Notes: a model not told the origin generated them from the sequence alone. Counted from the stretch's first letter, positions 3,626-63,042 are shown. The stretch: 64,000 nucleotides of DNA from Candidatus Parcubacteria bacterium (GCA_023142915.1 JAGLIO010000001.1:126-64125), one strand, 5' to 3'. Translations and numbers: made by a program.

Positions 3626-5206
3626 TTAAAATAAACTTGTCCCCGTCATTTCTTTGGGAGTTTTTTTATTTACAATTTTTAAAACAGTCGGCGCGATATC
3701 GCCTAATATGCCGTTTCTTTTTAATTTTATATTTTTCATATTTTTATTCACAACAACAAATGGAACAGGGTTGGTAGTATGTTCTGTGTGAATTTCTCCG
3801 GTTTTTAAATTCAACATTTTTTCAATATTTCCATGATCAGCCGTAATAACAATTGTTCCATTAACACTTAAATAAGCATCAACAATATCTGAAACGCATT
3901 TGTCAATTGTTTCACAGCATTTAATTCCAGCTTTAATATTTCCTGTGTGCCCGACCATATCAGGGGCGGCAAAATTCAATAAAGTAAAATCATATCTCCA
4001 AGACCTATCGCAGGAATTCTTTAAGCAAAGATTATCAATAACCTTTTTTGTTAATTTTTCCGAACTCATAGGGGGTGTCTGATCATAGGATTTAACATCC
4101 GGAGATGGAACCATATATTGTTCTTCATTGCCGATTTTTCCGGAATATCCGCCATTGAGAAAATAAGTTACATGCGCGTATTTTTCCGTTTCCGCAATAT
4201 ACAGCTGTCTTAAATCAGACAACACCATTGGCAAAGTGCCGCATAAATCTATTCCAGGATATGCTGTTAAAATATCATCAAGATCCGGGCCGAAATCAGT
4301 CATTGCCACAAAATACAAATGCTTTAGCTGTTTTTTTCTGCTGAACGAACCCTTGTTCATTTTCTTAAAATTATTTTGCACAAAAACTTTGGCTAACTGG
4401 CGGCTTCGGTCAGAACGCAAATTAAAAAATATCACGCTATCGCTATCGCTAATTCGCGAACTTTTTCCATTGTCTTCGCCGATTATGCATGGCTCTATAA
4501 ATTCGTCGCTATCGCCGCGATTATATGATTGCGTAATGGCATCTTGAGCATTTTTTGCCAAACGCCCTTTATTTAGAACTAACGCGTCATAAGCTTTCTC
4601 AGTTCTTTCCCATTTCTTTTTACGATCCATTGCGTAAAATCTGCCCATTATGGTTGATATTTTTTCATTATTAAAAAAATTCTTTTCCAAATCATCAACT
4701 AATTGCAAAGAGGCGTATTGCGGCGAATCACGGCCGTCAGTAAATAAATGCAAGCTGACATCTTCCACTTTATTTTTCTTAAGCAAATTCAAAATAGCGA
4801 TAAAATGGCTTGGGTCGCTGTGCGGACTTTGTCCGTTTGACAGCATGCCGATTATATGAATTTTTGAATTCATTTTGCGAGCGTGCCTAATCGCGCCTAA
4901 AAAAGCGGAATTCTTAAAAAAAGTTCCGTCTTTAATACTATTGCTTATTTTCACAACATCCTGCTCCACCAGCCTGCCTGCTCCGATATTCATATGCCCA
5001 GCCTCGCTATTTCCAACTTGCTTAATCGGCAAACCAACATGCTTGCCATGCGCGCGCAATTTTGTAAAAGAATATTTTTTAAACAAAGCGTCCAAAATAG
5101 GAGTTTTTGCCAAAGCAATCGCGTTGCCTTTATTTAACTTATCCATACCCCAGCCATCAAGTACTATTAATATTAGAGGTAGATTGTTATTTGTTTTTTT
5201 TGGCAT
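3626..5206 (-). CDS. gpmI: 2,3-bisphosphoglycerate-independent phosphoglycerate mutase (iPGM), copy 2 (diverged tandem paralog)
   Basis: LILIVLDGWGM, GNSEAGHMNIGAGR and ITADHGNIE motifs. Length 526 aa. Lies 4 bp downstream of copy 1 on the same strand. Confidence 0.9.
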   Translation of the reverse strand: MPKKTNNNLPLILIVLDGWGMDKLNKGNAIALAKTPILDALFKKYSFTKLRAHGKHVGLPIKQVGNSEAGHMNIGAGRLVEQDVVKISNSIKDGTFFKNSAFLGAIRHARKMNSKIHIIGMLSNGQSPHSDPSHFIAILNLLKKNKVEDVSLHLFTDGRDSPQYASLQLVDDLEKNFFNNEKISTIMGRFYAMDRKKKWERTEKAYDALVLNKGRLAKNAQDAITQSYNRGDSDEFIEPCIIGEDNGKSSRISDSDSVIFFNLRSDRSRQLAKVFVQNNFKKMNKGSFSRKKQLKHLYFVAMTDFGPDLDDILTAYPGIDLCGTLPMVLSDLRQLYIAETEKYAHVTYFLNGGYSGKIGNEEQYMVPSPDVKSYDQTPPMSSEKLTKKVIDNLCLKNSCDRSWRYDFTLLNFAAPDMVGHTGNIKAGIKCCETIDKCVSDIVDAYLSVNGTIVITADHGNIEKMLNLKTGEIHTEHTTNPVPFVVVNKNMKNIKLKRNGILGDIAPTVLKIVNKKTPKEMTGTSLF

Positions 5207-5455: not shown

Positions 5456-8089
5456 ATGTTTAATAAATTCACAAACAAATCGCAGGAAGCGATTATTAAC
5501 GCGCAAATTATCGCCCAGGATTATGGACAATCACAGATTGAAAGTTTGCATATTTTTGCCGCGCTTTTAACTCAAAGCCAGAGTTTAATCAAGCCTGTTT
5601 TGGAAAAATTAAAAATTTCACCCGAAGAAGTGGAAGATATGATTTTTAGAAAAATTGAAAATAGGCCAAAATCCCCTGCTCCGATGCGTGAAAACGTGGG
5701 AGCTGTTCAAGGCACGGCTGAAGTGGCAATGGTTTTGGAAAGAGCGAAAAAAGAAGCAGACCAAATGGGCGATGAATATATCTCCACCGAGCATATTCTT
5801 TTGGCTCTTATAGGCATCAAAAGCGAATCGCAGGAGATTCTTTTGCGCCTGGGAGTTGCTTATGAAAATGTTTTAAAAATATTAGCGGAATTGCGTGGCT
5901 CGCAAAAAGTTGACAGCCCCAATCCTGAAACCAAGTATAAGGTTTTAGAAAAATACGCAATTAATTTAACAGAACTGGCAAGACAAAAAAAACTGGATCC
6001 GGTAATCGGCAGAGACGAAGAAATTCGCAGAATAATGCAAGTTTTATCGCGGCGAACCAAAAACAACCCGGTTGTTATCGGCGAGGCAGGGACTGGAAAA
6101 ACCGCTATTGTTGAAGGATTGGCGCAAAGAATTGTTGACGGCGATGTTCCTGAAACTTTAAAAAATAAAGAATTAATCAGTCTTGATTTAGGCGCGCTGG
6201 TAGCCGGCGCGAAATTCAGGGGCGAATTTGAAGATCGCTTAAAAGCGGTTTTAAAAGAAATAAAATCGCGTGAAGGCGAAGTTATTTTGTTTATTGACGA
6301 ATTACACACAATCGTCGGAATTGGCGCTTCCGAAGGCGCGATGGACGCTTCCAATATGCTTAAGCCGGCTTTGGCGCGCGGAGAACTTAAAACAATCGGC
6401 GCCACTACAATTAAAGAATATCAAAAATATATTGAAAGAGACGCTGCTCTGGAAAGGCGTTTTCAGCCGATTTATGTTTCCGAGTCAAGCGCTGAAGACA
6501 CAATCGCGATTTTAAGAGGCATTAAGGAAAAATATGAAGTTCATCACGGAGTAAGAATTACCGATGATGCCATAATGTCCGCTGTTAAACTTTCTTCCAG
6601 ATACATAACCGACCGTTTTTTGCCTGACAAAGCGGTTGACTTGATTGATGAAGCCACAAGCGCGCTAAGAATGGAAATTGATTCAATGCCTGAGGATTTG
6701 GATAAATTAAAAAGAGAAATTAAAAGATTAAAAATTGAAAAAGCAGGATTGCAGCAAGAAAAGAAAAGCAATATTAAAATCAAGCATTTAAGCAAGCAAA
6801 TTGAAGAACTTAAAGAAAAAGCAGACCAAATTGAATTGCATTGGAATAATGAAAAAAATATTATTTCCAAAATCAGCAACAAGAAAAAAGAAATAGACGA
6901 GCTAAAGGCCAAGTCCGAAATTATTGAAAGGCTTGGCGAAGATTTAACTCAAGTCGCGGAAATCAGGTATGCGAAAATTCCAAATCTTGAAAAAGACGTA
7001 AAAAAACTGGAAATTGAATTATTAAATATCCAAAAAAAAGGACAGAGAATATTAAAAGAAGAAATTGACCATGAAGATATTGCCAAAGTCGTTGCCCGCT
7101 GGACAGGAATACCGGTTTCAAAAATGCTTGAATCTGAAATTAAAAAACTGGCAAAAGCCGAAATTGAATTGTCTAAGCGCGTTCGCGGACAAGATGACGC
7201 GATTAAATCCGTTGCCAACGCAATTCGCCGTTCACGAGCCGGAATATCCGAGGAGCAAAAACCAATCGGATCATTTTTATTTGTCGGACCGACCGGCGTT
7301 GGAAAAACCGAACTGGGCAAAACATTGGCGGAATTTATGTTTAACGATGAAAACGCGCTTGTAAGACTGGACATGAGCGAATTTATGGAAAAGCACAGCG
7401 TTGCCCGCATGATCGGCTCCCCTCCCGGATATATCGGGCATGAAGAAGGCGGACAATTAACTGAAAAAATCCGCCGCCGCCCTTACAGCGTAATTTTATT
7501 TGATGAAATTGAAAAAGCCCACCCTGAAGTATTTAATATTCTTTTGCAAATTCTAGACGATGGACGCTTAACAGACGCCAAAGGGCGGGTGGTTAATTTT
7601 AAGCATTCAATTATTATTATGACATCAAATCTTGGCAATGAAGTTATCAAGCAATATTCAATCGGGTTTTCCGATGACAGCGATAAAGAAGAAGCGGTTA
7701 AAACCAGGGATAGCGAGATGAAAGAAAAAATTGACACGATTCTTAAAGAAAATTTTAAGCTGGAATTTTTAAACAGGATTGACGAAATCGTAATATTTAA
7801 AAGCCTTAGCAAAAAAGTATTAACTGAAATAGTTGATCTTGAATTAAATAAACTTGAAAAAAGGCTGCTTGATAAAAATATCAAGCTTAAAATCGCCGCA
7901 AAAGTTAAAAAAATGCTTGCTGAAAAAGGCTATGATATTACTTTTGGCGCCCGTCCGCTAAAAAGAATTATTCAGAACTCAATTCTTGACGAATTGGCCT
8001 TGGAAATTATTGAAGGCAAAATAAAAGAAGGAAATAAAATATCAATTGATTTGGGAATTAAGGATGAGGTGTTAGTTAGAGTTAAATAA
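5456..8089 (+). CDS. clpB: ATP-dependent chaperone ClpB
   Basis: 877 aa. N-terminal Clp_N repeats, two AAA+ modules ([17 protein letters not shown]; [16 protein letters not shown]), and a long coiled-coil M-domain between them that is diagnostic of ClpB. Confidence 0.95.
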
Positions 8090-8106
8090 GTTATATTTTC
8101 AATAAA

Positions 8107-8136
8107 AAATACCTGTTTAAGTAGGTATTTTTTGTT
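8107..8136 (+). terminator. rho-independent terminator after clpB (8-bp stem aaatacct/aggtattt + T-run)
   Basis: Hairpin at 8107-8130 followed by ttttgtt. The terminator together with the last ~25 bp of clpB is duplicated at 11318-11385. Confidence 0.6.
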
Positions 8137-8206
8137 CTCTAATTTTTTGTAAAAAAACCTAAAATAATGTATAATATTAATATCTTAAATAACTTTAAAA
8201 CTAATT

Positions 8207-9187
8207 ATGACTACTGCAAATTCAAGACAAATGACAACAGGCAAATCTTTTGAATATGCGCTTCTTGTTCAATTTGAAGAAAAACTAAAGGATAAAATCA
8301 ATCTTGAAGTTATAAAAAATTCATCTTTTGAAATTGCAAAAGGTTGTTTTGAGAATGTGAGTGGCGCAGAACAAAACGAATATCTACTTTCGGCTAGCTT
8401 TGCTGTTAATTTTCTCATGGACATAGAACCACGACTTTCAAATGATATTGGCAAAAGCGATATTTTACAACTTGAAATTTTATCAGATCAACACGGAAAA
8501 TCTGGTGATGTAAGAGATGTTTTAGCAATACGATTATTACAAAAATGGGAAATTGGCGTATCGGCTAAAAATAATCATCATGCGGTAAAACATTCTCGTT
8601 TATCTGCAAGTATTGATTTTGGTGAAAAATGGCTTGGTGTAAAAACATCCAAAGAATATTTTGATGTCGTTACTCCTATTTTTAAAAATCTTGAAAAAAT
8701 TAAAAAAGAAAGTAATGCAAAGAAAAAATGGAGCGAACTTGGCGACTATCATTCAACAATTTATGTCCCAATCTTGAAAGCTTTCATTAAAGAGTTGCAA
8801 CAACTTTATAAAAAAGATTCTACAAAAATTGCTTCAAGCTTAGTTGCATATCTTGTTGGGAATAAAGATTTTTATAAAGTTATAAAAAGTAAAAACAGCG
8901 TAGAAATACAAGCATATAATATCAACGGAACTTTAAATTTACCTTTTAAGAGCACTACCCCTAAATATAAAACACCTAAAATTCCGTTACCGACAAAAAT
9001 TACTGATATTGACTTCAAAAAAGGTAGTGACACAACTGTAATAGTTACAATGGATAACGACTGGACTCTTTCTTTTCGTATTCATAATGCTAGTTCTAAA
9101 GTTGAATCATCATTAAAGTTTGATATAAATCTTTTGAAATCACCAAAAAAATTATTTAAAAATACGTTAAATATAAGTCACGATTAA
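8207..9187 (+). CDS. putative Type II restriction endonuclease (partner of the downstream C5-methyltransferase)
   Basis: 326-aa ORF with no recognisable motif. Its stop is 2 bp before the C5-MTase start, the operon arrangement typical of R-M pairs. The size is close to what I recall for R.HaeIII (~317 aa); that is an inference only. Confidence 0.5.
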
Positions 9188-9189
9188 TT

Positions 9190-10167
9190 ATGAAAATAGT
9201 ATCTTTATTTACAGGTGCAGGCGGTCTTGATCTCGGCTTTGAAAAAGCTGGCTTTAGGGTTGTTTGGGCCAATGAGTTTGATAAAACAATTTGGAAAACA
9301 TTTGAACTGAATTTTCCGCATACAAAATTAGACAAACGAAGCATTGTTGATGTTAAGTCTATTGAAATACCAAAATCAGACGGAATTATTGGCGGACCTC
9401 CTTGCCAAAGTTGGAGTGAGGCAGGTGCTGGTCGTGGGATTGAAGACAAACGAGGTCAGCTTTTTCATGATTATATTCGTTTATTGAAAAAAAAACAACC
9501 TAAATTTTTTCTTGCCGAAAATGTTTCTGGCATTCTTAACCCAAAACATTCTGAAGCTTTTACAAATATAATCAAAAAATTTAAAAGTGCGGGTTATGAA
9601 ATATCGCAAAAATTACTAAATGCAAATGATTTTGATGTTCCGCAAGATCGCAAGCGTGTAATTGTCATTGGATATAGAAAAAATTTGAATAAAAAATTTG
9701 AATTTCCAGAAACACAAAAATATAAACCTGTTTTAAAAGACGCTATTTATGATTTAAGATTAGCTAAACCAGCAAAAGATAAAAACAAAACGAATGGTGA
9801 TAGTTTGAAAATTCCTAATCATGAATATATGAATGGAGGATTTTCTTCAATCTATATGTCCCGAAATCGTGTTCGTTCCTGGAACGAACCATCTTTTACA
9901 ATTCAGGCTGGTGGTCGCCATGCACCTATTCATCCACAAGCCCCCAAAATGAAATTTATTAGCCAGAATAAAAGAATTTTTATTCCCGGAAAAGAACATT
10001 TGTATCGTCGTTTATCAGTTCGGGAATGTGCAAGAATTCAAACTTTTCCCGACAATTTTATTTTTAAATATATAGATATAGCAGACGGCTATAAAATGGT
10101 TGGAAATGCTGTACCTGTAAATTTTGCAAAACGTATTGCACAAAAAATAATGAGTGATTTAAAATAA
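9190..10167 (+). CDS. DNA (cytosine-5)-methyltransferase, M.HaeIII-like (probable GGCC specificity)
   Basis: Motif [12 protein letters not shown], motif [11 protein letters not shown], motif VI FLAENV, motif [15 protein letters not shown], motif X GNAVPV. The variable region (KNKTNG...PNHEY...SxIxMSRNRVRxWNEPxFTxQAxGRxxxxHPQAP) and the overall 325-aa length match M.HaeIII as I recall it from memory. Confidence 0.88.
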
Positions 10168-10305
10168 ATTATGTTTATAAAAACTTTACAAATTAAAAAT
10201 TTTGTAACTACTCAGGTTCTTTTGTTAAATAATCCTTATTCTAACCCGTCAAAATGAACAAAATTTATATTTTTGAAAAATTAATAAGAATATTAAACAA
10301 AAAAT

Positions 10306-10461
10306 AATGTTAAAAAACATAAAAAAACCCTATTTAATAATCACCTGTTTTATTATTTTTGCCTGTTTAAGCGCGGAATCGCTGGCGGCGGTTTTTGATC
10401 CTAATTATATAATCAGCGATGAAGAAATATTGGGCTCAGACTCAATGACGAGCGCGCAAAT
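10306..10461 (+). pseudogene. truncated duplicate of the 5' end (signal peptide region) of the secreted-protein gene at 13204
   Basis: About 115 bp nearly identical to 13211-13330 (MLKNIKKPYLIITCFIIFACLSAESLAAVFDPNYIISDEE...), then divergence and a stop after 51 codons. Confidence 0.6.
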
Positions 10462-10516
10462 TTGACTTTTGCCGTATCTTTTGCTAATTTATAATCAATA
10501 AATAATTTTACGGCTT

Positions 10517-10897
10517 ATGAAAAAAGTTTTATTCAGCGCAACTGATCCTTTAGGCAATGAAATAAAACTGCTTAAAGAGACATTTGAAAAACATATTATT
10601 GTCAGGCACCCTGAAATGAAAAACCATATTCAAGATATTAAACAAGCAGTAAAACATCCGCTCTATATCGGAAGCGGAGCCAAAAGCAAAAATTCAATAA
10701 TTTATTTAAGCGTTTTTCCTAATCAAAATACTCCTTATATTATCGTAGCTGTTAAAAGAATAAAGAAGACCAACAAAATAATTTTAACAGCGTTCAGTGC
10801 TAAAAATCTGGGATTAAATAAAATAAATAAAATTTTATGGCAAGAAAAAAATCCAAAAAACTTAATTATTCCTACTCTCCGGCCACGCAAGAACTGA
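10517..10897 (+). CDS. hypothetical small protein (possible RelE/BrnT-fold, DUF4258-like toxin)
   Basis: 126 aa. An HIIVRHPEM...IQDIKQAV segment followed by a beta-rich IIYLSVFP...YIIVAVKR...IILTAFSA pattern. This is weak similarity recalled from memory with no motif certainty. Confidence 0.3.
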   Translation: MKKVLFSATDPLGNEIKLLKETFEKHIIVRHPEMKNHIQDIKQAVKHPLYIGSGAKSKNSIIYLSVFPNQNTPYIIVAVKRIKKTNKIILTAFSAKNLGLNKINKILWQEKNPKNLIIPTLRPRKN

Positions 10898-11130
10898 TGA
10901 TTACAACTGTTGAACAAAAAGATTTGGGCAAAGTTGAAAATATTATGCTGGACAGCGACCACTATCTGCAATGGGATCCAATGGCAAAGGAGTTGGTCGG
11001 TTTTTTTATTTTATTTGTTGGCGCTGATGAAAAAAAAGAACAGTTTCATAGTTTTCCGCAAGCAAAAGAGCTAAAATCAATTGGTTTTAATAATTTTTTC
11101 AAACAGCTTGGAAATATTTGCGCTGGCTAA
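10837..11130 (+). CDS. hypothetical small protein overlapping the previous ORF by 61 nt (possible cognate partner)
   Basis: 97-aa ORF in a different frame with a basic N-terminus (MARKKSKK). Coding status uncertain. Confidence 0.25.
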   Translation: MARKKSKKLNYSYSPATQELMITTVEQKDLGKVENIMLDSDHYLQWDPMAKELVGFFILFVGADEKKEQFHSFPQAKELKSIGFNNFFKQLGNICAG

Positions 11131-11355
11131 GACTTGGCTGATCTTGATTATAACATTAAAGACGCAATCTTTACTTCTTTTCATGTTCCTGCTTATTACT
11201 GTAATTTTGACAGTTTAGTTTCTCCGATTAACAATGAGTTAAAACTGCAATATGCTACCCGCTAAATACCCATCAGACAGCAGCCAGAAAAAAATTATAA
11301 AATTTAAAAAATAAGTTGTTGGTTAGGGTGAAATAAGCGATATTTTCAATAAAAA

Positions 11356-11382
11356 ATACCTGTTTTAGCAGGTGTTTTTTGT
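11356..11382 (+). terminator. second copy of the clpB-type terminator hairpin (part of 11318-11385 repeat)
   Basis: tacctg-ttttag-caggtg + T-run. The flanking sequence repeats the clpB 3' end (gttggttagggtgaaataa). Confidence 0.5.
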
Positions 11383-11426
11383 TTTGATTGGGTAGGATTA
11401 ATAAATTTTATTTTTTGAAATCTAAC

Positions 11427-12071
11427 TCAATTCGATATTTCAAAAATTTTACTAACAAGCTTTGTTCTCGCATAAAAAGCTCTTGTAATTGGTCGCCTTT
11501 CGCCTGTATGAGGATTTATTCCACCTATCCCCTTTGTTCTTGCCTGTACCCATTTACCGTACTTGCCTGTAAGTTTATCGAATCCTTCTTTTATGAGTTT
11601 ACTTCTAATAAAATCATAATCTGATTTTATTTCTAAAATAAGATCATCGTCCTCAGCGAAATCAAGGCTTGTCACTTCAAGAAGTTCGGCGTGTTTTGCG
11701 TCCTGACCATGCCACATAACAGAACAAAAAACCAGAGACTTTAATTTTTCCCAACAATGACTTTTGAAAAATGACGTGATTTTTAATTCTTCCGGATTAA
11801 TCATGGTTATTGCCATTGTTTCTTTTGGTTTTAACTTTCCCCCAACCTCTTTAAAGGCGACTGATTTTAATTCAAAACCAAGCCCATTTGGGGCTTGGGA
11901 ATTATCGTTGCTAAGTCCCGCTAATCTTTCAAGCGTCTGTCCTTTCCAACCTTTATTTTGCTTCCCCGTTTCAAAAGTTGTAATTCCAAAATCAACAGAC
12001 AATTTCATTAAATCTTTACCGATATGTTTTTTTAAATTGCTTATTGCGGTTGCTCTAGTAATTATTTTCAT
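11427..12071 (-). CDS. putative Type II restriction endonuclease (partner of adjacent beta-class MTase)
   Basis: 214 aa, 50 bp downstream of the MTase on the same strand. Possible PD-(D/E)XK-like ND...ELK segment (LSNDNSQAPNGLGFELKSV). No firm family assignment. Confidence 0.4.
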   Translation of the reverse strand: MKIITRATAISNLKKHIGKDLMKLSVDFGITTFETGKQNKGWKGQTLERLAGLSNDNSQAPNGLGFELKSVAFKEVGGKLKPKETMAITMINPEELKITSFFKSHCWEKLKSLVFCSVMWHGQDAKHAELLEVTSLDFAEDDDLILEIKSDYDFIRSKLIKEGFDKLTGKYGKWVQARTKGIGGINPHTGERRPITRAFYARTKLVSKIFEISN

Positions 12072-12120
12072 AAATATAAAAATTTATTTTATTAAAACTA
12101 AGACTTCTTTATTACCAACT

Positions 12121-12954
12121 TTATTTTAAGTTTTTAACATCTTTTTTTATTTCTTTAAACCTTTTAATCGATAAGTCAAGATATTTTTTTTCTAAATCTA
12201 TACCGATAAATTTTCTATTATTTAAAAATGAAGCCATTCCCGTAGTTGATGAGCCGGTAAAAGGATCAAGTACCATATCTCCTTTATTCGTGCTAGCCAT
12301 TACAATTCTGACTAATAAATCTATTGGTTTTTGCGTTGGATGTTTGCCGAATTTCTTTTCTGCTGGCTTTGGTGTTCCCATTGACCAAACACTTCTCATT
12401 TGAAGTCCGGGTTTTTTAATAAAATCCTCTGGCCAATTCCCATTTTTCATTAAATCATAATTAAATTTATGTTTTTGTTTTATTGATTTTCCAGTTCTCT
12501 TGTTTACAAGTTCTTTTCTGGCCCAAATAAGAGTTTCATGACTTGCGGTAAAAAAACGACAACTTAAATTCGGTGAAGCATTTGGCTTAAACCAAGCTAT
12601 ATCATTTAAAATATGGAATTTATTAACTTGCAAAGCAAAGCCACATTGATAAATTGAGTGGTATGTACCAGAAATCCAAATTGTTCCGCCAGGCTTCAGA
12701 ACCCTATGACAAGCCTTAATCCATTCTAAATGAAATTCAAAATTTTTCTTTGTTCCATTGCTTAAATCCCAATCACCTTTTTTAACACTTACCATTTGTC
12801 CGTTTTGGCAAGTAAAACTTCCTGATGAAAGAAAATATGGAGGATCGGCAAAAATCATGTTAATTGAATTTTCTCTGACATTTTCATTTAAAAATTTAAT
12901 TGCGTCAGACAAATATAATGAAAAATCATCTTTTTTAAAATATAATTTCTTCAT
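12121..12954 (-). CDS. DNA methyltransferase, beta class (N6-adenine or N4-cytosine; DPPY)
   Basis: Motif IV IFADPPYF near the N-terminus and motif I/AdoMet site VLDPFTGSSTTGMAS near the C-terminus, with GKHPTQKPIDLLVRIV in between. This is the circular permutation typical of the M.PvuII/M.RsrI-type beta group. Confidence 0.85.
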   Translation of the reverse strand: MKKLYFKKDDFSLYLSDAIKFLNENVRENSINMIFADPPYFLSSGSFTCQNGQMVSVKKGDWDLSNGTKKNFEFHLEWIKACHRVLKPGGTIWISGTYHSIYQCGFALQVNKFHILNDIAWFKPNASPNLSCRFFTASHETLIWARKELVNKRTGKSIKQKHKFNYDLMKNGNWPEDFIKKPGLQMRSVWSMGTPKPAEKKFGKHPTQKPIDLLVRIVMASTNKGDMVLDPFTGSSTTGMASFLNNRKFIGIDLEKKYLDLSIKRFKEIKKDVKNLK

Positions 12955-13203
12955 AAATATTTTATTGATTTAAGAGTAATTTGCATATACTTATTTTATC
13001 TTTTTTAAAACAAAAGGTCAACTTAAATTTTTACACATCTTAAATACCTTTAATTTTAATTTTGAATAAATTTATTTAAAAAGATACGTCTGCTTTTTTT
13101 ATACTACTTTTACCTTATCTTTAAGTCAACTCGGTTTATTTTGTAAAAAAATCCAAACTACTGTATAATTATTAATATCTAATAACTTAAAAACTAATTA
13201 TAT

Positions 13204-14775
13204 ATGCCAAAAAACATAAAAAAATCCTATTTAATAATCACATGTTTTATTATTTTTGCTTGCTTAAGCGCGGAATCGCTGGCGGCGGTTTTTGATCCTA
13301 ATTATATAATCAGCGATGAAGAGATTTTTGATTCAAGTTCAATGACGCTTTCTGAAATTGACGCTTTTTTGCGCTCTAAAAACGGATACATTTCTAAAAA
13401 TAATCTTTCTGATTATGCTGGGCGAACTAAAACAGCGGCGCAAATTATTTATAATGCGGCGAATAATTATGATTGTGGCAATTCAGATATATTTACTCAC
13501 GCGAATATTCAGGAAAAAGAAAGATTTTGTCAAAAAATTACGATTAATCCCAAATTTTTAATTGTACTTTTACAAAAAGAGCAAAGCCTTATTACAGAGA
13601 CAAGCCCCACGCAAAGACAGCTTGATTGGGCGACCGGTTACGGATGTCCTGATGGCGGAGGATGCAATGACAGATGGGAAGGATTTGGCAAGCAAGTAAA
13701 TTCAGCCGCGCTACAATTTTTTGATTACATGGAAAATCCGCATCACTATACTTATCGCGCCGGAAATACTTATACTATATCAAATACCAATAAACCGGAA
13801 ATGGAAGTTACTCCCCTAAACAAGGCTACGGCAGCGCTCTATAATTATACTCCGCATGTTTATAATGGAAATTATAATTTTTATAAACTATGGATGCGTT
13901 ATTTTACTTTTAGCTACCCTGATAATACCCTTTTGCAAATAAAAGGCGAGCCTGGAGTTTGGCTTATTAAAAACGGAGAGAAGCGCCCGTTTTTAACTAA
14001 AGGCGCGCTAACTTCAAGATATGATTTAAATAAAGTAATTCCGGTTAATAAATCAATCTTAGACCAATACCCAAAAGGAGCCCCGATTAAATTTCCTCAA
14101 TACTCTTTAATACGCAGTCCGCGCGGAACTATTTATTTATTGGTTGACGATAAACGCCGCGGGTTTGAAAACGCGGAAGCTTTCCGTAAAATCGGTTTTA
14201 ATCCGGAAGAACTTTTAGATGCCAGCTGGGAAGATATTAGCGCTTATGAGGAAGGCGTATCTATTACAGCTACTTCAAGCTATCCTACCGGAGCCTTGTT
14301 GCAAGACAGGGTTAGCGGCGGAATTTATTATGTAACCGAAGGCACAAAAGCCCCGCTTTGGGACGCGATTTTATTAAAAACAAAATTCAAATGGAAGTCC
14401 ATCACACAAGAAAGTCCGGAAAAATTAGCCAGCTTTAAAACAGTTGAACCGGCAATATTCAATGACGGCGAACTGTTAAAATCAAATCTTTCTCCGGCCG
14501 TATATGTAATTGACAATAAAAAACGCAGACCCATCACCTCGGGCAAAATTTTTGAAGACTTGGGCTATTCATGGGATAACATTATAAGCGTTCCGGAAAA
14601 AATCCTTAACCTTTACGCCGAAGGCGACGCAGTTAAAGAAATTTTTACAGAAGATATCATTGACACCGACAGCGCAACCTCCACTGACCCAATTTTAGCC
14701 TCAAGCACGCCGGACATTGCCACGGGAACCGATGAAACATTGGAAGACGAAATTAATAATATATTAAATCCTTAA
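13204..14775 (+). CDS. secreted protein with four C-terminal ~55-aa repeats and Thr/Asp-rich tail
   Basis: N-terminal signal peptide (IITCFIIFACLSAESLAA). The C-terminal half contains four repeats of a (G)xxYL/VIxxGxKRPIxS...F..LGY.W..I..V.......Y..G module. No catalytic motif recognised. Confidence 0.6.
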   Translation: MPKNIKKSYLIITCFIIFACLSAESLAAVFDPNYIISDEEIFDSSSMTLSEIDAFLRSKNGYISKNNLSDYAGRTKTAAQIIYNAANNYDCGNSDIFTHANIQEKERFCQKITINPKFLIVLLQKEQSLITETSPTQRQLDWATGYGCPDGGGCNDRWEGFGKQVNSAALQFFDYMENPHHYTYRAGNTYTISNTNKPEMEVTPLNKATAALYNYTPHVYNGNYNFYKLWMRYFTFSYPDNTLLQIKGEPGVWLIKNGEKRPFLTKGALTSRYDLNKVIPVNKSILDQYPKGAPIKFPQYSLIRSPRGTIYLLVDDKRRGFENAEAFRKIGFNPEELLDASWEDISAYEEGVSITATSSYPTGALLQDRVSGGIYYVTEGTKAPLWDAILLKTKFKWKSITQESPEKLASFKTVEPAIFNDGELLKSNLSPAVYVIDNKKRRPITSGKIFEDLGYSWDNIISVPEKILNLYAEGDAVKEIFTEDIIDTDSATSTDPILASSTPDIATGTDETLEDEINNILNP

Positions 14776-14778
14776 AAT

Positions 14779-15570
14779 ATGCCTTTAGTATTTTCAGCCA
14801 TAGTCCCCCACCCTCCGATTTTAATTCCAGCGATTGGAAAAAATCATATTAAGCAATTAAAAGCGACTGTAAATTCGTATGAAAAACTAAAAAATAAGTT
14901 AAGCGAAAAAAAGATTGATACAATCATTATTATTTCTCCGCACGGAAAAGCCCATAATGACGCTTTTACAATTAATTTTAATCCAAAATTAGTATGCGAT
15001 TTTAAAGATTTCGGAGATTTTTCCACGCAAAAAACCTGGGACTTGGATATTGAATTAGCTTACAAAATTAAAGAGGGGCTTGAAACAGATATTCCGCTCC
15101 AGCTTAACACCGATGAATTTTTAGACCATGGATCAGCGGTTCCTTTGCATATTCTTACTGAAAATTTGGAAAATATAAAAATAATTCCCATTCATCATTC
15201 CGGACTCAGCTTGGAAGAACATTTAAATTTTGGAGAAAAACTTAAAACTCAAATTTTTGTCAGTAATAAAAATATCGCCGTGATTGCCTCAGGCGATCTT
15301 TCACATGCGTTAGCAAAAGACTCCCCCGCGGGGTACTCGCCTAAAGGCAAAAAATTTGACAAAAAAATCATAGAATTATTAAGCGCGAAAAAAATTGACG
15401 GAATCTTAAATCTTAATCCGAAATTTATAGACGACGCCAAGGAATGCGGCTTGCGTCCGTTTTTAATCCAACAGGGAATATTAAAAAATGTTAATTACAA
15501 AACAAAAACGCTTTCTTATGAAGCGCCTTTTGGTGTCGGATATTTGGTTATGGATTTTGAAATTAATTGA
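14779..15570 (+). CDS. LigB/class III extradiol dioxygenase-fold (MEMO-like) family protein
   Basis: 263 aa. N-terminal AIVPHPPILIP and IIIISPHGKAH resemble the paired-His metal-site blocks of LigB-family proteins. This is a family-level call only. Confidence 0.45.
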   Translation: MPLVFSAIVPHPPILIPAIGKNHIKQLKATVNSYEKLKNKLSEKKIDTIIIISPHGKAHNDAFTINFNPKLVCDFKDFGDFSTQKTWDLDIELAYKIKEGLETDIPLQLNTDEFLDHGSAVPLHILTENLENIKIIPIHHSGLSLEEHLNFGEKLKTQIFVSNKNIAVIASGDLSHALAKDSPAGYSPKGKKFDKKIIELLSAKKIDGILNLNPKFIDDAKECGLRPFLIQQGILKNVNYKTKTLSYEAPFGVGYLVMDFEIN

Positions 15571-17044: not shown

Positions 17045-17263
17045 ATGCGTAAAATAGATTTAAAATCAGTTATTTGGAAGGAGAATAACTATTATATTTC
17101 TCAGTGTTTGGAAGTGGATGTTTCCAGTTTTGGCAAAACTAGAAAAGAATCCCTTGCCAATCTTCAAGATGCCTTAGAATTATATTTTGAAGATGTGCCT
17201 CTTCCACAGAAGATAGAAGTTAAAAACCCTGTTATTACTTCTGTAAAATTCCAACATGCCTAG
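17045..17263 (+). CDS. hicB: HicB-family antitoxin (UPF0150 N-terminal domain only)
   Basis: 72 aa. YYISQCLEVDVSSFGKTRKESLANLQDALELYFED matches the HicB/UPF0150 pattern (Y.A..P.LPGC...G.T.EEAL.N..EAIELHLE). Overlaps the downstream toxin by 8 nt. Confidence 0.65.
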   Translation: MRKIDLKSVIWKENNYYISQCLEVDVSSFGKTRKESLANLQDALELYFEDVPLPQKIEVKNPVITSVKFQHA

Positions 17264-17480
17264 TCCAATCTCATTTAGACTTATTCTTAAAATCCTTAAA
17301 AAAAGAGGTTTCTTTTTTGTTTCTCAAACAGGTTCACATGCTAAATATCGTAAATTGGGGAACCCAACCATAAATGTTATTGTTCCAATTCACGAAAAAG
17401 AAGTACGTTATGGTACATTCAGGTCTATTTTACGCCAATCCAAATTAAAAGAGAACGATTTTAAAAAAAGAAAAAATTAA
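17256..17480 (+). CDS. hicA: HicA-family mRNA interferase toxin
   Basis: 74 aa. KKRGFFFVSQTGSHAKYRK...VIVPIHEKEVRYGTFRSILRQSKL matches the YcfA/HicA signature (GSH...P.H..KEL..GTLRSILKQ). Confidence 0.75.
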   Translation: MPSPISFRLILKILKKRGFFFVSQTGSHAKYRKLGNPTINVIVPIHEKEVRYGTFRSILRQSKLKENDFKKRKN

Positions 17481-25062: not shown

Positions 25063-25415
25063 GTAAAAAGATTTTTATCGTCAACTTCCAGCCAATCATT
25101 TTCATTGTCATCCCATTTGTAGATAATTAACTTATGGCTTTTTTCGGTTTCACTGTAAACATAATCAACCTTTGTGTCAGAACCTATTCGTCTTGAGTAA
25201 ATAGTTTTTTTATCAAGAACAACAGGTCTTGAAATAAATTCAAGCCTCATTAAGCCCAATGGACCTTCAAATTCTATAAATTCAATGTCCACTCCTCCTT
25301 CTTCGTCAATATTAGATTTGCCTTCATCATTGATTGTAAAATTGTCTTTAATGTTTCCAACAACATTTTCCCATTTTTCCGGCAGCATATATTTCAAGTT
25401 ATGCCCAAAGGGCAC
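25059..25415 (-). CDS. hypothetical acidic small protein
   Basis: 118-aa ORF overlapping the downstream gene by 4 nt. No motifs. Confidence 0.4.
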   Translation of the reverse strand: MPFGHNLKYMLPEKWENVVGNIKDNFTINDEGKSNIDEEGGVDIEFIEFEGPLGLMRLEFISRPVVLDKKTIYSRRIGSDTKVDYVYSETEKSHKLIIYKWDDNENDWLEVDDKNLFT

Positions 25416-25454
25416 TAACAGTAGTCGGGAATATTTAAATTCCTTGACTATTAA

Positions 25455-26498
25455 TTAATAATAAACCGCTTGCGTTTCCAAGTCTCTTTTTCTATTGCGC
25501 GCGACGTCTTCGCTGATTACTCCGTTTTTTAACAAATTATCTATTGATTTATTCATTGTTATCATACCATCTTTCACCCCCATTTGAATAGTGGAATAAA
25601 TTTGCTCTGTTTTATTATCGCGAATTAAATTTGCTATCGCGCGGTTATTAATCATTATTTCCCTGGCCGCCGTTAATCCTCCTCCTTTTTTTGGCAATAA
25701 TTGCTGAGAAATAACAGCTCTTAGAACAGAGGCAAGCTGGCCGGTAATTGAATTTTGATTTTGCAAAGGAAAAAAATCCACTATTCTTTCAACTGTTTCC
25801 GGGGCAGTTGTCGTATGCAGGGTGGAAAGGACTAAATGTCCGGTTTTCGCGGCTGTCAACGCCGCGGAAATAGTTTCAAGATCGCGCATTTCACCAACCA
25901 TAATCACATTAGGGTCTTGCCTTAAAGCGTATTTTAAAGCATCTGCAAAACCTGTTGTATCCCGTCCAAGCTGCCTTTGTTCAACAATGCTTTGCTTATC
26001 AGTAAAATCATACTCAATCGGATCTTCAATCGTAATTATATGCGAGCGCCTTTCCGCGTTTATTATATCAAGCATAACCGCCAAAGTGGTTGATTTGCCC
26101 GTTCCCGAAGGCCCTGTTAGCAATATTAAACCGTCTTTTAGATGAGTTAAAGAATAAATTATTTCATTTAAGCCGATCTCTTTTGCAGTTGGGATTTTTT
26201 TAGGAACCAGGCGGGCGGTTAAACCGATTTTGCCTCCCTGAAAATGAAGGTTAACCCGAAATCTGTTATCAAAAAATTCCATTGACATATCCATATCTCT
26301 TTTTCTTTCAAATCTGTCTTTTGTGTATTTATCCAAATAAAGGTAAAGAGCGTGCTTTAACTCGCCATAAGGAATAGCCTTTTCTTTAAAGCGAATTAAC
26401 TCGCCTGATACGCGCAATGCAGGCACGCTTCCTTCAACCAAATGCAAATCAGATGCGTTATTTTCAATAGCGGTTTTAAAATAAGGTTCTAACTCCAT
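25455..26498 (-). CDS. pilT: type IV pilus retraction ATPase PilT
   Basis: 347 aa. Walker A LLTGPSGTGKSTTLA, Asp box, GHLVLSTLHT His box, AIRE-like C-terminal region. Confidence 0.88.
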   Translation of the reverse strand: MELEPYFKTAIENNASDLHLVEGSVPALRVSGELIRFKEKAIPYGELKHALYLYLDKYTKDRFERKRDMDMSMEFFDNRFRVNLHFQGGKIGLTARLVPKKIPTAKEIGLNEIIYSLTHLKDGLILLTGPSGTGKSTTLAVMLDIINAERRSHIITIEDPIEYDFTDKQSIVEQRQLGRDTTGFADALKYALRQDPNVIMVGEMRDLETISAALTAAKTGHLVLSTLHTTTAPETVERIVDFFPLQNQNSITGQLASVLRAVISQQLLPKKGGGLTAAREIMINNRAIANLIRDNKTEQIYSTIQMGVKDGMITMNKSIDNLLKNGVISEDVARNRKRDLETQAVYY

Positions 26499-28581: not shown

Positions 28582-29790
28582 TTAATATTGTTCAAGGATA
28601 CTATCATCAACATTGTTAATCAGTTGTCCGGCGTAATTTTTAAGTTCTTCCAGACTGACAATATGCTTCTTTTTTCCGTTTACTATTACATAGGTTTTAA
28701 AATTTTTGCCGCGAAGCAAGGCGCCGTTGCCATATTTTTCTCCCAATATGCTTGCCCCCCCGTATTGCGCTAAAATTTCATCATCAACGTCCGTAATCGG
28801 CTGGCCCGCGTATTTTCTTAATTCTTGCAAAGTACTGATATGCTGTTTAACGCCGTTAACAATAACATATACTTTCATATTTCTACTGCGAATTAAGGCT
28901 CCGTTTCCGTATTCGGCGCCGAGCATACCTGTTCCGCCATATTGCGCCAATATTTCATCATCAACGTCCGTAATCGGCTGGCACGCGTATTTTCTTAATT
29001 TTTGCAAAGTATTAATGTGTTCTTTAACGCCATTATTGATGATATATATTTTTTTGTTGTTGCCGCGGATTAAAGCGCCGTCCGCGTAAAATCCGGCTTC
29101 TGATGCTGTTGAAACTTCAAATTCATCATCGCCCGCTTTCACTTCTTTTTTAATTTCCGATTTTACTTTTTTCTGTTGCTCTTTGGCAAGGCTAACAGAA
29201 TTTTGGCTGTTGCCATACATAACCGCGAAAATGCTTAAATGATTAACAGAAAAAGTAACTTTGCCGTTTGTTGAATCAAAATCAGCTCCCGGAATTTTAA
29301 CCCATTCATTTGTTTCGCTTTTAAAACAATAAACATCTACGCCCGAAATATCTCCGGGCATATCAGGCAATATAATGGTTATTACCATGTCTTTGCTAAA
29401 AGCTGTTATTGCATTATTATCTTCGTCTTTAGCGGTAATGCTGAATATTTTGCTTCCTATTATAAAAGCGTCGCCGTCCGGTTTTTGATTGGCGCTTGCG
29501 GCGCTCATTTGAATTTTAAAGGTTGCTCTGGTGTTTGCGGCTACGGTCTCTTTTGGAATCTCTAATTTTACTGTTCCTTGTTCTCCAAAATTGTTAGTGG
29601 CAGCCCCTTCTTGCTGAGACGACAATGTCATTGGATAATTAATTGCCGTAACAATTTTCGGCGCCGTTGATGATACGCCTCCACCTCCGCCATATCCTGA
29701 AGCGGCTTTAAATCCGAACAAAGAAATGGCGAAAATAAAACCTGTTAAGGCAATGGTTTTAAAATAAAATAATTTTTTTAATGAGTTCAT
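28582..29790 (-). CDS. secreted protein with three C-terminal 59-aa tandem repeats (YGNGALIRxxNxKVYVIVNGVKxHIxxLxELRKYAGQPITDVDDEILAQYGG)
   Basis: Signal peptide (LTGFIFAISLFGFKAASG) and three 177-bp near-identical DNA repeats spanning about 28585-29115. The repeat module resembles the C-terminal repeats of the 13204 protein. Confidence 0.6.
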   Translation of the reverse strand: MNSLKKLFYFKTIALTGFIFAISLFGFKAASGYGGGGGVSSTAPKIVTAINYPMTLSSQQEGAATNNFGEQGTVKLEIPKETVAANTRATFKIQMSAASANQKPDGDAFIIGSKIFSITAKDEDNNAITAFSKDMVITIILPDMPGDISGVDVYCFKSETNEWVKIPGADFDSTNGKVTFSVNHLSIFAVMYGNSQNSVSLAKEQQKKVKSEIKKEVKAGDDEFEVSTASEAGFYADGALIRGNNKKIYIINNGVKEHINTLQKLRKYACQPITDVDDEILAQYGGTGMLGAEYGNGALIRSRNMKVYVIVNGVKQHISTLQELRKYAGQPITDVDDEILAQYGGASILGEKYGNGALLRGKNFKTYVIVNGKKKHIVSLEELKNYAGQLINNVDDSILEQY

Positions 29791-45481: not shown

Positions 45482-46660
45482 TTATTTCTTTTTCCCTTTT
45501 GCTTTGCCGTTATTACTATTGCTTTTTCCGTTATTACCATTATTGTTTTTATATTTATTTGCGTTTGCGCTCATAATTTGCCCTTTTTCTCTGCCAGTTA
45601 TTTCCCCATGGCTTTTAAGCCAATTTGTGTAATGAGCCAAGCAGCTTACAAAACCGCCATGGTTGCTGAAAGAATTTCCAAAAGGATCGCATCCGATAAA
45701 AATATCATCATCCCCGTCTCCATTATCAATGCAATCCGTATCAATATTTCCATCACAATTATTATCAATTCCATCCAAACAAACTTCATCCGCATCAGGG
45801 TTAATACTGGAGTCAGCATCATCGCAATCCGTGTTATCAAGAACATATCCCGTGGGTTGAGTCGTGGAACTTATTGAATCCGTTGGATTTCCGTATCCGT
45901 CTTCGTCCTCGTCTGAATAGTATGTTATTTCCACGGAAGCGCATGTTTCATCTCCTCCGCTGCAATCATTATCAATACCGTCTCCGCAAATTTCAGTTGC
46001 TCCCGGGCTGGTTGTGGCGCTGGAATCATCGCAATCCGTGTTATCTTCAACATATCCTGTTGGTTCTGTTGTGGAACTTATTGAATACGCCGGATTTCCG
46101 TATCCATCTCCGTCCGCATCTAAGTAATATGTCCATACACATGCTTCATCTCCTCCGACACAATCATTATCAATACCGTCTCCGCAAATTTCGTCTTCTC
46201 CAGGATTAATACTAGCGTTGGAATCATCACAGTCTGTATTATCTTCAACATATCCTGTTGGTTCTGTTGTGGAACTTATTGAATACGCCGATTTTCCGTA
46301 CCCATCTCCGTCCGCATCTAAGTAATATGTCCATACACATGCTTCATCTCCTCCGACACAATCATTGTCAATACCGTCTCCGCAAATTTCAGTTGCCTCA
46401 GGGCTTGTTGTGGCGCTGGAATCATCGCAATCCAGATTATTAGAAGCATAATTTAATGGCGCGGAACATGCGGCAGTAGAAGTGGCCGAACTATCGCCAA
46501 AACCGTCGCCATCTTCGTCAATATAAAAATCTATATATTGACCATTACAAGTATCGTATTCAAAACCATCGGCTTTTACAGCCATAATTGTGCCTGCGCC
46601 CACGCAAATAGCAAGCACTACAAGCACTACATTAATAAATAATTGTTTGGATTTTAACAT
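45482..46660 (-). CDS. secreted cysteine/aspartate-rich repeat protein (MopE-like 'putative metal-binding motif' repeats)
   Basis: Signal peptide, then about 4 repeats of DCDDxxxxxxPGxxExCGDGIDNDCxGGDExC...YYLDADGDGYG, and a C-terminal Lys/Asn-rich tail. Confidence 0.65.
   Translation of the reverse strand: MLKSKQLFINVVLVVLAICVGAGTIMAVKADGFEYDTCNGQYIDFYIDEDGDGFGDSSATSTAACSAPLNYASNNLDCDDSSATTSPEATEICGDGIDNDCVGGDEACVWTYYLDADGDGYGKSAYSISSTTEPTGYVEDNTDCDDSNASINPGEDEICGDGIDNDCVGGDEACVWTYYLDADGDGYGNPAYSISSTTEPTGYVEDNTDCDDSSATTSPGATEICGDGIDNDCSGGDETCASVEITYYSDEDEDGYGNPTDSISSTTQPTGYVLDNTDCDDADSSINPDADEVCLDGIDNNCDGNIDTDCIDNGDGDDDIFIGCDPFGNSFSNHGGFVSCLAHYTNWLKSHGEITGREKGQIMSANANKYKNNNGNNGKSNSNNGKAKGKKK
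45820..46450. repeat. 198-bp near-identical tandem DNA repeats (about 3.2 copies) inside the MopE-like gene
   Basis: Segments at about 46021 and about 46219 are more than 95% identical over 198 bp. This also produces spurious repeated plus-strand ORFs at 45874..46443. Confidence 0.85.
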
Positions 46661-62768: not shown

Positions 62769-63042
62769 TGTTTAAAAAATATATAATTTATAGTCAAGGA
62801 ATTTAAATATTCCCGACTACTGTTAATGCCCTTTGGGCATAACTTGATATTTTTACTTTAACATATTATTGATAAAATTTAAAGCGAAGTCAGGAAAACG
62901 AAAGTACCCCCCCCACTGACCCTCAACCAATTTTAAAATCACATAAAAATTCTATTAAAAAAAATAGATAAATATTTTATTTGAATTACAAAACCGAATG
63001 TTCCAACCTTTCCTTTTTCAATAATTATGTTATAAATAATAC

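Follow-up and report, generated by a model that had tools for sequence, protein, structure and literature searches.

The gap between clpB and a conserved secreted-protein gene that we call sec523 (523 amino acids [aa], positions 13204-14775) holds, in a Candidatus Parcubacteria metagenome-assembled genome (MAG), a 5.1-kb insert with two systems of the restriction-modification (R-M) type and a toxin-like gene pair. The first system (RM1) is a HaeIII-like pair and the second (RM2) combines a MutH/Sau3AI-like nuclease with a beta-class methyltransferase. The window analyzed here is a 64-kb stretch of this MAG in which three sequence blocks, A, B, and C, each occur twice around these systems in interleaved order. 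The locus is an integrase-free accumulation of defense genes, instructive and with precedent. We propose that two diverged, differently loaded alleles of one insertion hotspot became stacked in tandem through homologous and illegitimate recombination, an account to which we give an even chance of being right. Genes were identified with Pfam, NCBIfam, and PADLOC profiles, and L-numbers (L002, L121, etc.) denote the related loci or contigs that were compared with the window. The flanking genes and repeat blocks are as follows.

5456-8089, plus strand: clpB (877 aa), which forms the conserved left flank of the hotspot (Pfam AAA_2, ClpB_D2-small, Clp_N).
8064-8136, plus strand: block A1, the last 26 nucleotides (nt) of clpB with the stop codon, followed by an A-tract/hairpin/T-tract bidirectional terminator; 86.3% identical to A2.
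8145-8208, plus strand: block B1, a copy of the sec523 promoter with leader, directly before the RM1 endonuclease gene; 87.7% identical to B2.
10233-10294, plus strand: preC1, upstream leader from a sec523 allele of the L124 type (10234-10450 vs. L124 1242-1458, 95.9%).
10295-10450, plus strand: block C1, a sec523 5' stub of 12 nt of leader and the first 144 nt of the gene; 88.5% identical to C2 and 94.2% to the L124 allele.
11311-11409, plus strand: block A2, a clpB pseudo-end and bidirectional terminator (11311-11383), then a 26-nt shared spacer; 70/71 to L120/L121.
13139-13201, plus strand: block B2, the sec523 promoter (promoter scan) before intact sec523; 93.9% identical to the B element of L120/L121.
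13191-14775, plus strand: block C2 (13191-13347) and sec523 as one span.
13204-14775, plus strand: sec523, intact, without a Pfam family, the right conserved flank of the hotspot; its product is identical to P0122 (NCBI MCK5509924.1).

A preliminary description of this DNA had reported each of the blocks twice, and self-alignment confirmed the repeats at essentially the coordinates it gave. The two A copies, put there at ~85-90% identity, align over 73 nt without gaps at 86.3% (63/73; 8064-8136 vs. 11311-11383). The B copies (8145-8208 vs. 13139-13201) share 57 matches, with 5 mismatches and 3 gap positions in two small indels (87.7%), and the C copies (10295-10450 vs. 13191-13347) agree at 88.5% across 157 columns, including a core at 10316-10425 in which 106 of 110 positions are identical to the second copy. 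Local-alignment scores for A, B, and C were 96, 83, and 223, against maxima of 35-45 among dinucleotide shuffles, none of which (0/300) equalled the observed values; chance matches of AT-rich sequence below 70% identity are not what was seen. When the 64-kb window was compared with itself, the three blocks were among only a handful of dispersed repeats. Block C had been described as the first ~115 bp of the secreted-protein gene; the repeat is real, but it starts ~12 nt before the ATG and runs to gene nt 144. The stub open reading frame (ORF) in C1 (10307-10465) has 52 codons rather than the 51 originally counted, and 48 of them are homologous to sec523. Its first 42 residues are identical to the N-terminus of the protein P0126, homology to sec523 ends at 10450, and C1 reads as a dead sec523 remnant.

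In none of the blocks are the two copies most closely related to one another. With the genuine clpB end and terminator of L120/L121, A2 is 98.6% identical (70/71), compared to 63/73 between A1 and A2, and over the segment 11313-11409, the identity to the corresponding sequence of L120, L121, and L122 is 97%. B2 is 93.9% identical to L121 (87.7% between B1 and B2). The combined preC1 and C1 segment is 95.9% identical to L124, and C1 alone is 94.2% (88.5% between C1 and C2), while C2 is 94.9% identical to L002. Copy-to-copy identity, at 86-88.5%, lies within the nucleotide identity of clpB and sec523 between lineages (85-92%). These affinities suggest that the repeat copies are diverged alleles with nearer relatives in other genomes and not recent duplicates. 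RM2 has L121-like sequence on either side (A2 and B2), which is what descent from one parental allele would predict.

Two further candidates for a B copy were set aside. A degenerate third copy before C1, under which RM1 would count as a simple insertion that duplicated B, gave scores that were matched by 495 and 897 of 1,000 shuffles, and the similarity of preC1 to B is not significant. A partial B-like piece at 13037-13068 was marginal (41/1,000 shuffles) and was not used.

The insert can be read as a left allele, A1-B1-[HaeIII-like R-M]-preC1-C1, truncated at sec523 nt 144, and a right allele, orf110 remnant-A2-[MutH-like R and beta-methyltransferase]-B2-C2-sec523, with ~300 nt of stacked region per allele. 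A ~680-nt cassette with a promoter and two genes, of which one encodes a PBECR-like nuclease, links them. The genes and pieces between the repeat blocks are listed below.

8207-9187, plus strand: R1, HaeIII-family type II restriction endonuclease, 326 aa (PF09556, E=7e-100; PADLOC REase_II, E=3e-103).
9190-10167, plus strand: M1, C5-cytosine DNA methyltransferase, 325 aa (PF00145, E=1e-99; TIGR00675, E=3e-85).
10168-10232, plus strand: right tail of RM1, without homology to relatives (breakpoint relative to L124 at ~10233, junction J2).
10457-11133, plus strand: translocated cassette of promoter piece, PBECR2-like nuclease, and partner ORF (91.5% over 682 nt to L143 569-1250).
10517-10897, plus strand: PBECR2-like nuclease (Pfam PBECR2, E=3.5e-5, 24.4 bits, under the cut-off of 27.1).
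10837 or 10897 to 11130, plus strand: partner ORF, with a TGATG stop/start overlap at 10895-10899.
11134-11265, plus strand: orf110 remnant, the last 43 codons of a 110-aa gene (11125-11427 vs. L002 4596-4904, 91%).
11427-12071, minus strand: R2, MutH/Sau3AI-family nuclease, 214 aa, putative restriction enzyme (PF02976, E=4e-9).
12121-12954, minus strand: M2, beta-class N6-adenine/N4-cytosine DNA methyltransferase, 277 aa (PF01555, E=5e-55; PADLOC MTase_II, E=2e-88).

The junctions between these pieces are short. At J1, the homology between B1 and B2 reaches the AT of the R1 start codon, so R1 occupies the normal position of the sec523 start, behind a copy of the sec523 promoter. RM1 ends at J2 (~10233). 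At J3, sec523 nt 144 is joined to the promoter piece of the PBECR cassette via a 6-nt filler, and at J4, the stop codon of the partner ORF is joined to codon ~67 of orf110, with a microhomology overlap of 7 of 9 nt (GGCnAAnAC) located exactly at the stop. RM2 is delimited by J6 (~11410) and J7 (~13135). Between C1 and A2, where the preliminary description had placed two small ORFs, there are thus two separate pieces, the PBECR/partner pair at 10457-11133 and the last 43 codons of a third gene, orf110, at 11134-11265. The L002 match (4596-4904) covers these 43 codons together with A2 and the spacer.

We considered whether the layout could be an assembly artifact, arising from a false join between haplotypes of co-occurring strains or from a simple tandem duplication that was resolved incorrectly. 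Short-read metagenome assembly underlies all of the data, several haplotypes are present together in the same samples, and several fragmented contigs stop near C1 and A2, although such breaks are expected because the co-occurring haplotypes share sequence. Against this, the layout recurs in Logan assemblies and in contigs from the same study, where at least four further samples have it, and single contigs from different samples span the structure without gaps: L129 covers window positions 5715-13825 with 5 mismatches, L130 covers 7635-13066 with 8, and L126, which carries a different sec523 allele, covers 8527-15163 with 58. Logan contigs, which come from another assembly pipeline, cover J2 and J3-J6, and the junctions hold unique sequence. 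The longest exact runs common to the copies are only 26 nt in A, 13 nt in B, and 59 nt in C, which makes assembly collapse unlikely. An artifact is very improbable.

Comparison with related genomes revealed the site without its insert. A species-representative genome scan with sec523 yielded 50 loci, and sec523 cluster members added further contigs. In L003 (= L115-L119) and L004, whose sec523 proteins have 90% aa identity to that of the window, clpB, terminator, promoter B, and sec523 follow one another with a gap of ~160 nt. The homolog of the gene at 13204 therefore stands directly after clpB with only the terminator and promoter between, and the ancestral clpB-A-B-C locus that the preliminary description postulated exists as an empty site. 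The A1-to-B1 spacing in the window, 8 nt, matches that of the empty sites, and the B element also lies upstream of sec523 in L002, L003, L004, and L121. Since the gap is ≤200 nt in ~30 of the 66 loci that carry both genes, we conclude that the clpB-sec523 adjacency is ancestral.

Other relatives carry different cargo at the same place. A Major Vault Protein (MVP)-like gene lies between the terminator and B in L120, L121, L122, and L002. The orf110 gene of L002 begins 1 nt past the clpB stop codon, and after it come the final 22-25 nt of clpB once more, with the terminator; genes for a DUF805 protein and a 106-aa protein are found upstream of sec523/preC in L124 and L125. Because unlike cargo occupies the same slots in relatives, the clpB/sec523 intergenic region is an integrase-free, multi-slot insertion hotspot. 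One slot follows the stop codon of clpB, one separates the clpB terminator from the promoter of sec523, and one lies between that promoter and the sec523 start codon. In the window, the B-C interval holds one cassette and the A-B interval the other, as had been noted at the outset. The absence of an integrase, transposase, or tRNA was likewise borne out: the 64-kb window contains no tRNA, and no integrase or transposase Pfam domain was found among the genes called ~10 kb either side of clpB. We found no hallmarks of a site-specific mobile element, with no recombinase hits among the neighbors and no inverted repeats other than terminator palindromes, and an Rfam search detected no known RNA in the window. 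A scan of Joint Genome Institute (JGI) metagenomes with the secreted protein gave a closest match of 73% identity and no extra haplotypes.

The MVP-like protein (877-890 aa; Major Vault Protein shoulder domain PF11978, E=1e-20) is encoded at L002:5057-7729, L120:6840-9473, and L121:3612-6245. Its gene holds the terminator-promoter slot where the window has RM2 and is an unexpected cargo for Patescibacteria.

R-M genes are reportedly found inserted with long target duplication, a type of event ascribed to Nobusato et al. (2000, Gene 259:99). Applied here, such an origin would have the PBECR pair and orf110 remnant inserted in one A-B-C target with in situ duplication of ~290 nt, after which RM1 entered the left B-C interval and RM2 the right A-B interval independently, and the copies diverged or were converted by other strains. 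The published operational features of this class (PMC2853133) are present, in that the R and M genes (R1/M1 and R2/M2) both lie inside the insert, the insert (5.1 kb) is <20 kb and lacks mobility genes and tRNA, and the repeats (73, 65, and 157 nt) are >30 bp and align to a single-copy empty site (L003/L115-119, L004). The likeness to the type II R-M units described by Furuta, Abe & Kobayashi (2010, PMC2853133) extends to direct repeats of tens to hundreds of bp without an integrase or transposase, each aligning to single-copy empty-site sequence in a related genome, to repeats that span the clpB stop and sec523 start and leave both flanking genes intact (spanning of translation stop and start is often reported for the class), and to a host lineage that is plausibly transformable. 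The repeat of ~22-25 nt of the clpB end that flanks orf110 in L002 also speaks for it.

The class implicitly expects the two copies of a repeat to be each other's closest relatives, which A, B, and C are not. Published repeats are near-identical, at 95-100% (e.g., 44/46 and 47/47; PMC2853133), whereas the copies here are 86-88% identical and allelic, each with a much closer relative in another genome. In the described cases, one repeat pair surrounds one unit; the window instead has three interleaved blocks, two R-M units, and a third cassette, and neither R-M unit has a repeat pair of its own around it. The orf110-A2 junction and the spacer that follows A2 also occur in L002, L120, and L121, all of which lack the duplication, and at least three separate insertions plus allele replacements would be required. 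No long flanking repeats were detected at E≤1e-3 around simple inserts at 22 other clpB-sec523 loci, so the repeats in the window reflect one particular stacking event and not a general by-product of insertion. For these reasons, we judge insertion with long target duplication unlikely. The initial suggestion that the locus was "duplicated or repeatedly targeted" thus stands only in part: repeated targeting with target duplication is not borne out at the 22 other inserted loci, and the copies would be diverged alleles.

The PBECR cassette that joins the two alleles has a counterpart in a sister genome. In L143, the corresponding locus lies elsewhere on the chromosome, between a histidine-kinase gene and a LOOT RNA gene, and the segment in the window appears to be a copy from this different chromosomal locus. 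Neither of the two small ORFs had PADLOC or NCBIfam matches. Some homologs of the nuclease (62-87% identity) carry precomputed PF18810/PF18812 matches, the partner is annotated as a 77-aa protein in L144/L145, and the coupled genes may form a putative toxin-antitoxin-like pair. PADLOC and Pfam searches with orf110 gave no matches.

At L143:538-2084 (JAGLLI010000112.1; also L144 and L145), the PBECR/partner pair lies inside interleaved repeats of its own. A 75-nt promoter segment occurs twice (538-612 and 1868-1942, 96%), a 76-nt 5' stub (1611-1686, 80%) copies the start of the intact LOOT RNA (RF03000, 1959-2084, 69.8 bits), and terminator-like blocks occur twice (1260-1338 and 1725-1804, 87%). 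As in the window, the order runs from a promoter copy through the cassette and a 5' stub to a second promoter copy and the intact gene. L143:1465-1496 and window positions 56773-56805, at unrelated loci, also share a 33-nt, hairpin-like GC-rich element (97%), which may be a small dispersed repeat.

The recurrence of this order around the LOOT RNA would fit a Campbell-type event, in which a fully loaded single-copy donor (PBECR-orf110'-A-RM2-B-RM1-preC-C) integrated into an empty clpB-A-B-C site by a single crossover in B. The donor would have been a ~5-kb circle or concatemer, formed via the illegitimate join of sec523 nt 144 to the PBECR promoter. Map reasoning shows that, of crossovers in A, B, or C, only one in B gives the observed interleaving with RM1 on the left and RM2 on the right; one integration step and one excision join (J3) suffice; and the scheme fits a proposed life cycle in which R-M units excise and reinvade via flanking repeats (PMC2853133). 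However, B provides only 65 nt of homology, in which the two copies as they stand today match exactly over no more than 13 nt in a row, and the scheme predicts different parents for A2 and B2, yet both are L120/L121-like (98.6% and 93.9%). Neither a fully loaded single-copy locus nor the circle junction was present in any contig examined. The B blocks contain too few informative sites for chimerism within them to separate the Campbell-type model from the stacking model. We regard a Campbell-type origin as a rather doubtful alternative.

The stacking of two alleles could have proceeded as follows. DNA of a related strain bearing a differently loaded allele would have recombined with the resident locus, with one homologous crossover in a flanking gene (clpB or sec523) and one illegitimate, microhomology-mediated join. 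Such homology-facilitated illegitimate recombination may plausibly have followed natural transformation; Saccharibacteria have been shown to be naturally competent, and com genes are a conserved feature of the phyla of the Candidate Phyla Radiation (CPR) (PMC10633639). With one homologous crossover and one illegitimate join, the incoming allele would be added beside the resident allele and not exchanged for it.

Several points weigh against this reading. The natural competence of this particular host is putative, and measurements elsewhere show homology-facilitated illegitimate recombination to be a rare event (PMC5361080). Exact look-ups of the R1, R2, and PBECR proteins found neither of the single-loaded parents, clpB-A-B-RM1-preC-sec523 and clpB-...-orf110-A-RM2-B-sec523, and all contigs with one of these exact proteins and visible neighbors show the composite order. 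For stacking, either the donor must already have had the PBECR cassette fused to orf110, or three fragments must have been joined. With blocks as short as these (65-157 nt) and mosaic lineages, the allele affinities could also reflect later gene conversion of an older in situ duplication. Expression of R1-M1 from B1 and the activities of the enzymes are predicted only. Mosaicism in this population, on the other hand, speaks for the stacking: over ~1.35 kb, clpB in the window (5756-7106) is 100% identical to L121:985-2335, with 87-93% identity on both sides, and, by eye, the sec523 protein encoded in L126 (P0133) looks like a mosaic of window-type and L002-type proteins. The clpB stretch points either to very recent recombination between co-occurring strains or to a strain-chimeric contig; the mosaic clpB of L121 could thus be an assembly chimera and not real recombination.

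R-M and toxin modules are addictive and penalize their own loss. Once formed, the stack would probably be hard to lose, since exact runs of only 13-59 nt (59 nt in C only) limit homologous pop-out and loss of the modules is penalized.

The E. coli hsd/mrr region is said to be a fixed locus at which restriction genes are substituted (a view attributed to Sibley & Raleigh, 2004). The clpB-sec523 locus resembles such allelic substitution (a "substitution" class is also recognized in PMC2853133), as well as integrase-free defense hotspots, in offering a fixed site between conserved genes to unrelated cargo. Cargo varies as at substitution loci, with RM2 alternating with the MVP-like gene, RM1 with the DUF805 genes, or either with nothing, and exchange through the flanks would agree with the short shared ends (26-45 nt after A2; preC, 73 nt). 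Unlike substitution loci, the window keeps two alleles side by side, and its gap of ~160 nt is split into three functional slots.

There is a second likeness to Vibrio cholerae's type VI secretion system (T6SS) effector-immunity arrays (PMC5361080) and to C-terminal displacement in Rhs and contact-dependent inhibition (CDI) systems, where a new module is placed beside the old and a truncated remnant is left. There, as here, conserved sequence anchors one end, an illegitimate join forms the other, and the repeated pieces are xenologous. In contrast to these arrays, the window carries R-M and toxin-like genes as cargo, its stub preserves the 5' end of a housekeeping-type secreted-protein gene and not a toxin C-terminus, and the junction holds a 680-nt insertion copied from another locus. 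Relative to the known classes, the allelic repeats, microhomology joints, and population haplotypes are a mechanistically informative twist.

Recombinase-free R-M insertion with long flanking repeats was described in 2000, and to our knowledge its mechanism is still an open question. The population haplotypes of a single metagenome set, namely the empty site, three kinds of alternative cargo, and the stacked form, show repeats that are diverged alleles with microhomologies at the joins, which points to transformation-type recombination over a transposon-like staggered cut. We put forward, tentatively and as a proposal more apt to fail than to hold, that ultra-small Patescibacteria recurrently capture selfish or defense cassettes without a recombinase, by way of alleles or circles and via promoter- or terminator-sized homology. 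If this is the route, each cassette gains a copy of a host promoter, the host gene retains another, and a 5' stub remains; the L143 LOOT RNA locus in the sister genome is a hint that the promoter-cassette-stub order is general. If the route were general, it would offer a testable mechanism for insertion with long target duplication, the "duplicated target" being one donor and one recipient copy. The locus also shows a streamlined CPR genome gathering defense and addiction modules in a 160-nt gap, with both flanking genes presumably kept expressed.

A sigma-70-like promoter, TTGTAA-17-TATAAT, is located at 8147-8175 in B1 (promoter scan score 10/12) and at 13141-13169 in B2. B1 most likely transcribes R1-M1 because it is the sole recognizable promoter upstream of these genes, and B2 would maintain the expression of sec523. 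A promoter-like site (TTGACC-17-TAAAAT) is situated upstream of M2 at 13021-12993, and A2 probably terminates the M2-R2 transcript, given a minus-strand terminator-like site at 11373-11358 within A2, downstream of R2. The predicted hairpin of A1 has a folding energy of -13.6 kcal/mol (z=-6.6), and for A2 the values are -17.1 kcal/mol on the plus strand (z about -6) and -10 for the minus strand.

The profile assignments of RM1 are strong over nearly the whole of R1, with 296 of 298 PF09556 positions covered. The gene is separated by 2 nt from M1, whose translation shows GGPPCQ and AENV motifs (catalytic PC and ENV); RM1 thus has the HaeIII-fold endonuclease adjoining a C5 methyltransferase with PC and ENV motifs that marks a HaeIII-family R-M pair. 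For R2, the PF02976 score is 36.7 bits against a cut-off of 23, and the NCBIfam matches to Sau3AI (E=9e-13) and MutH (E=1e-11) are both far under their own cut-offs. In an alignment with MutH from the PDB (E=3e-6), the ELK motif of R2 is aligned, and the catalytic Asp aligns to Ala, with an alternative Asp 4 residues upstream. The M2 translation shows a DPPY motif.

Both GGCC, the site of the HaeIII family, and GATC are under-represented in the window, with observed/expected (O/E) ratios of 0.34 and 0.57, respectively. This scarcity is compatible with selection by such enzymes, short of proof. Across the whole window, TCGA is avoided more strongly than either (13 observed vs. 90.7 expected, O/E 0.14), and no TCGA-specific R-M system was identified within the region studied.

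Many Patescibacteria lineages (Nomurabacteria, Absconditabacterales, and Parcubacteria) and one Woesearchaeota MAG have full-length R1 homologs with 80-90% protein identity. Among the loci compared here, the ClpB proteins of more distant Patescibacteria relatives are only ~58-75% identical, and the higher identity of the R1 homologs therefore indicates a wide and recent horizontal spread of the R1 cassette.

A second variable slot lies 2 kb downstream of sec523. There, at 17045-17480, a 72-aa ORF and a HicA-toxin gene are located between the gene for a 342-aa repeat protein and def, with no repeats flanking this cassette. The slot contains a GIY-YIG nuclease gene in L115 and is empty in L120. 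Elsewhere in the window, we observed a 67-nt inverted repeat with 95.5% identity whose arms (62784-62850 and 25391-25457) are 37 kb apart, as well as diverged tandem repeats at 45754-46440 and 28603-29081, with periods of ~200 and 177 nt and 73-80% identity.

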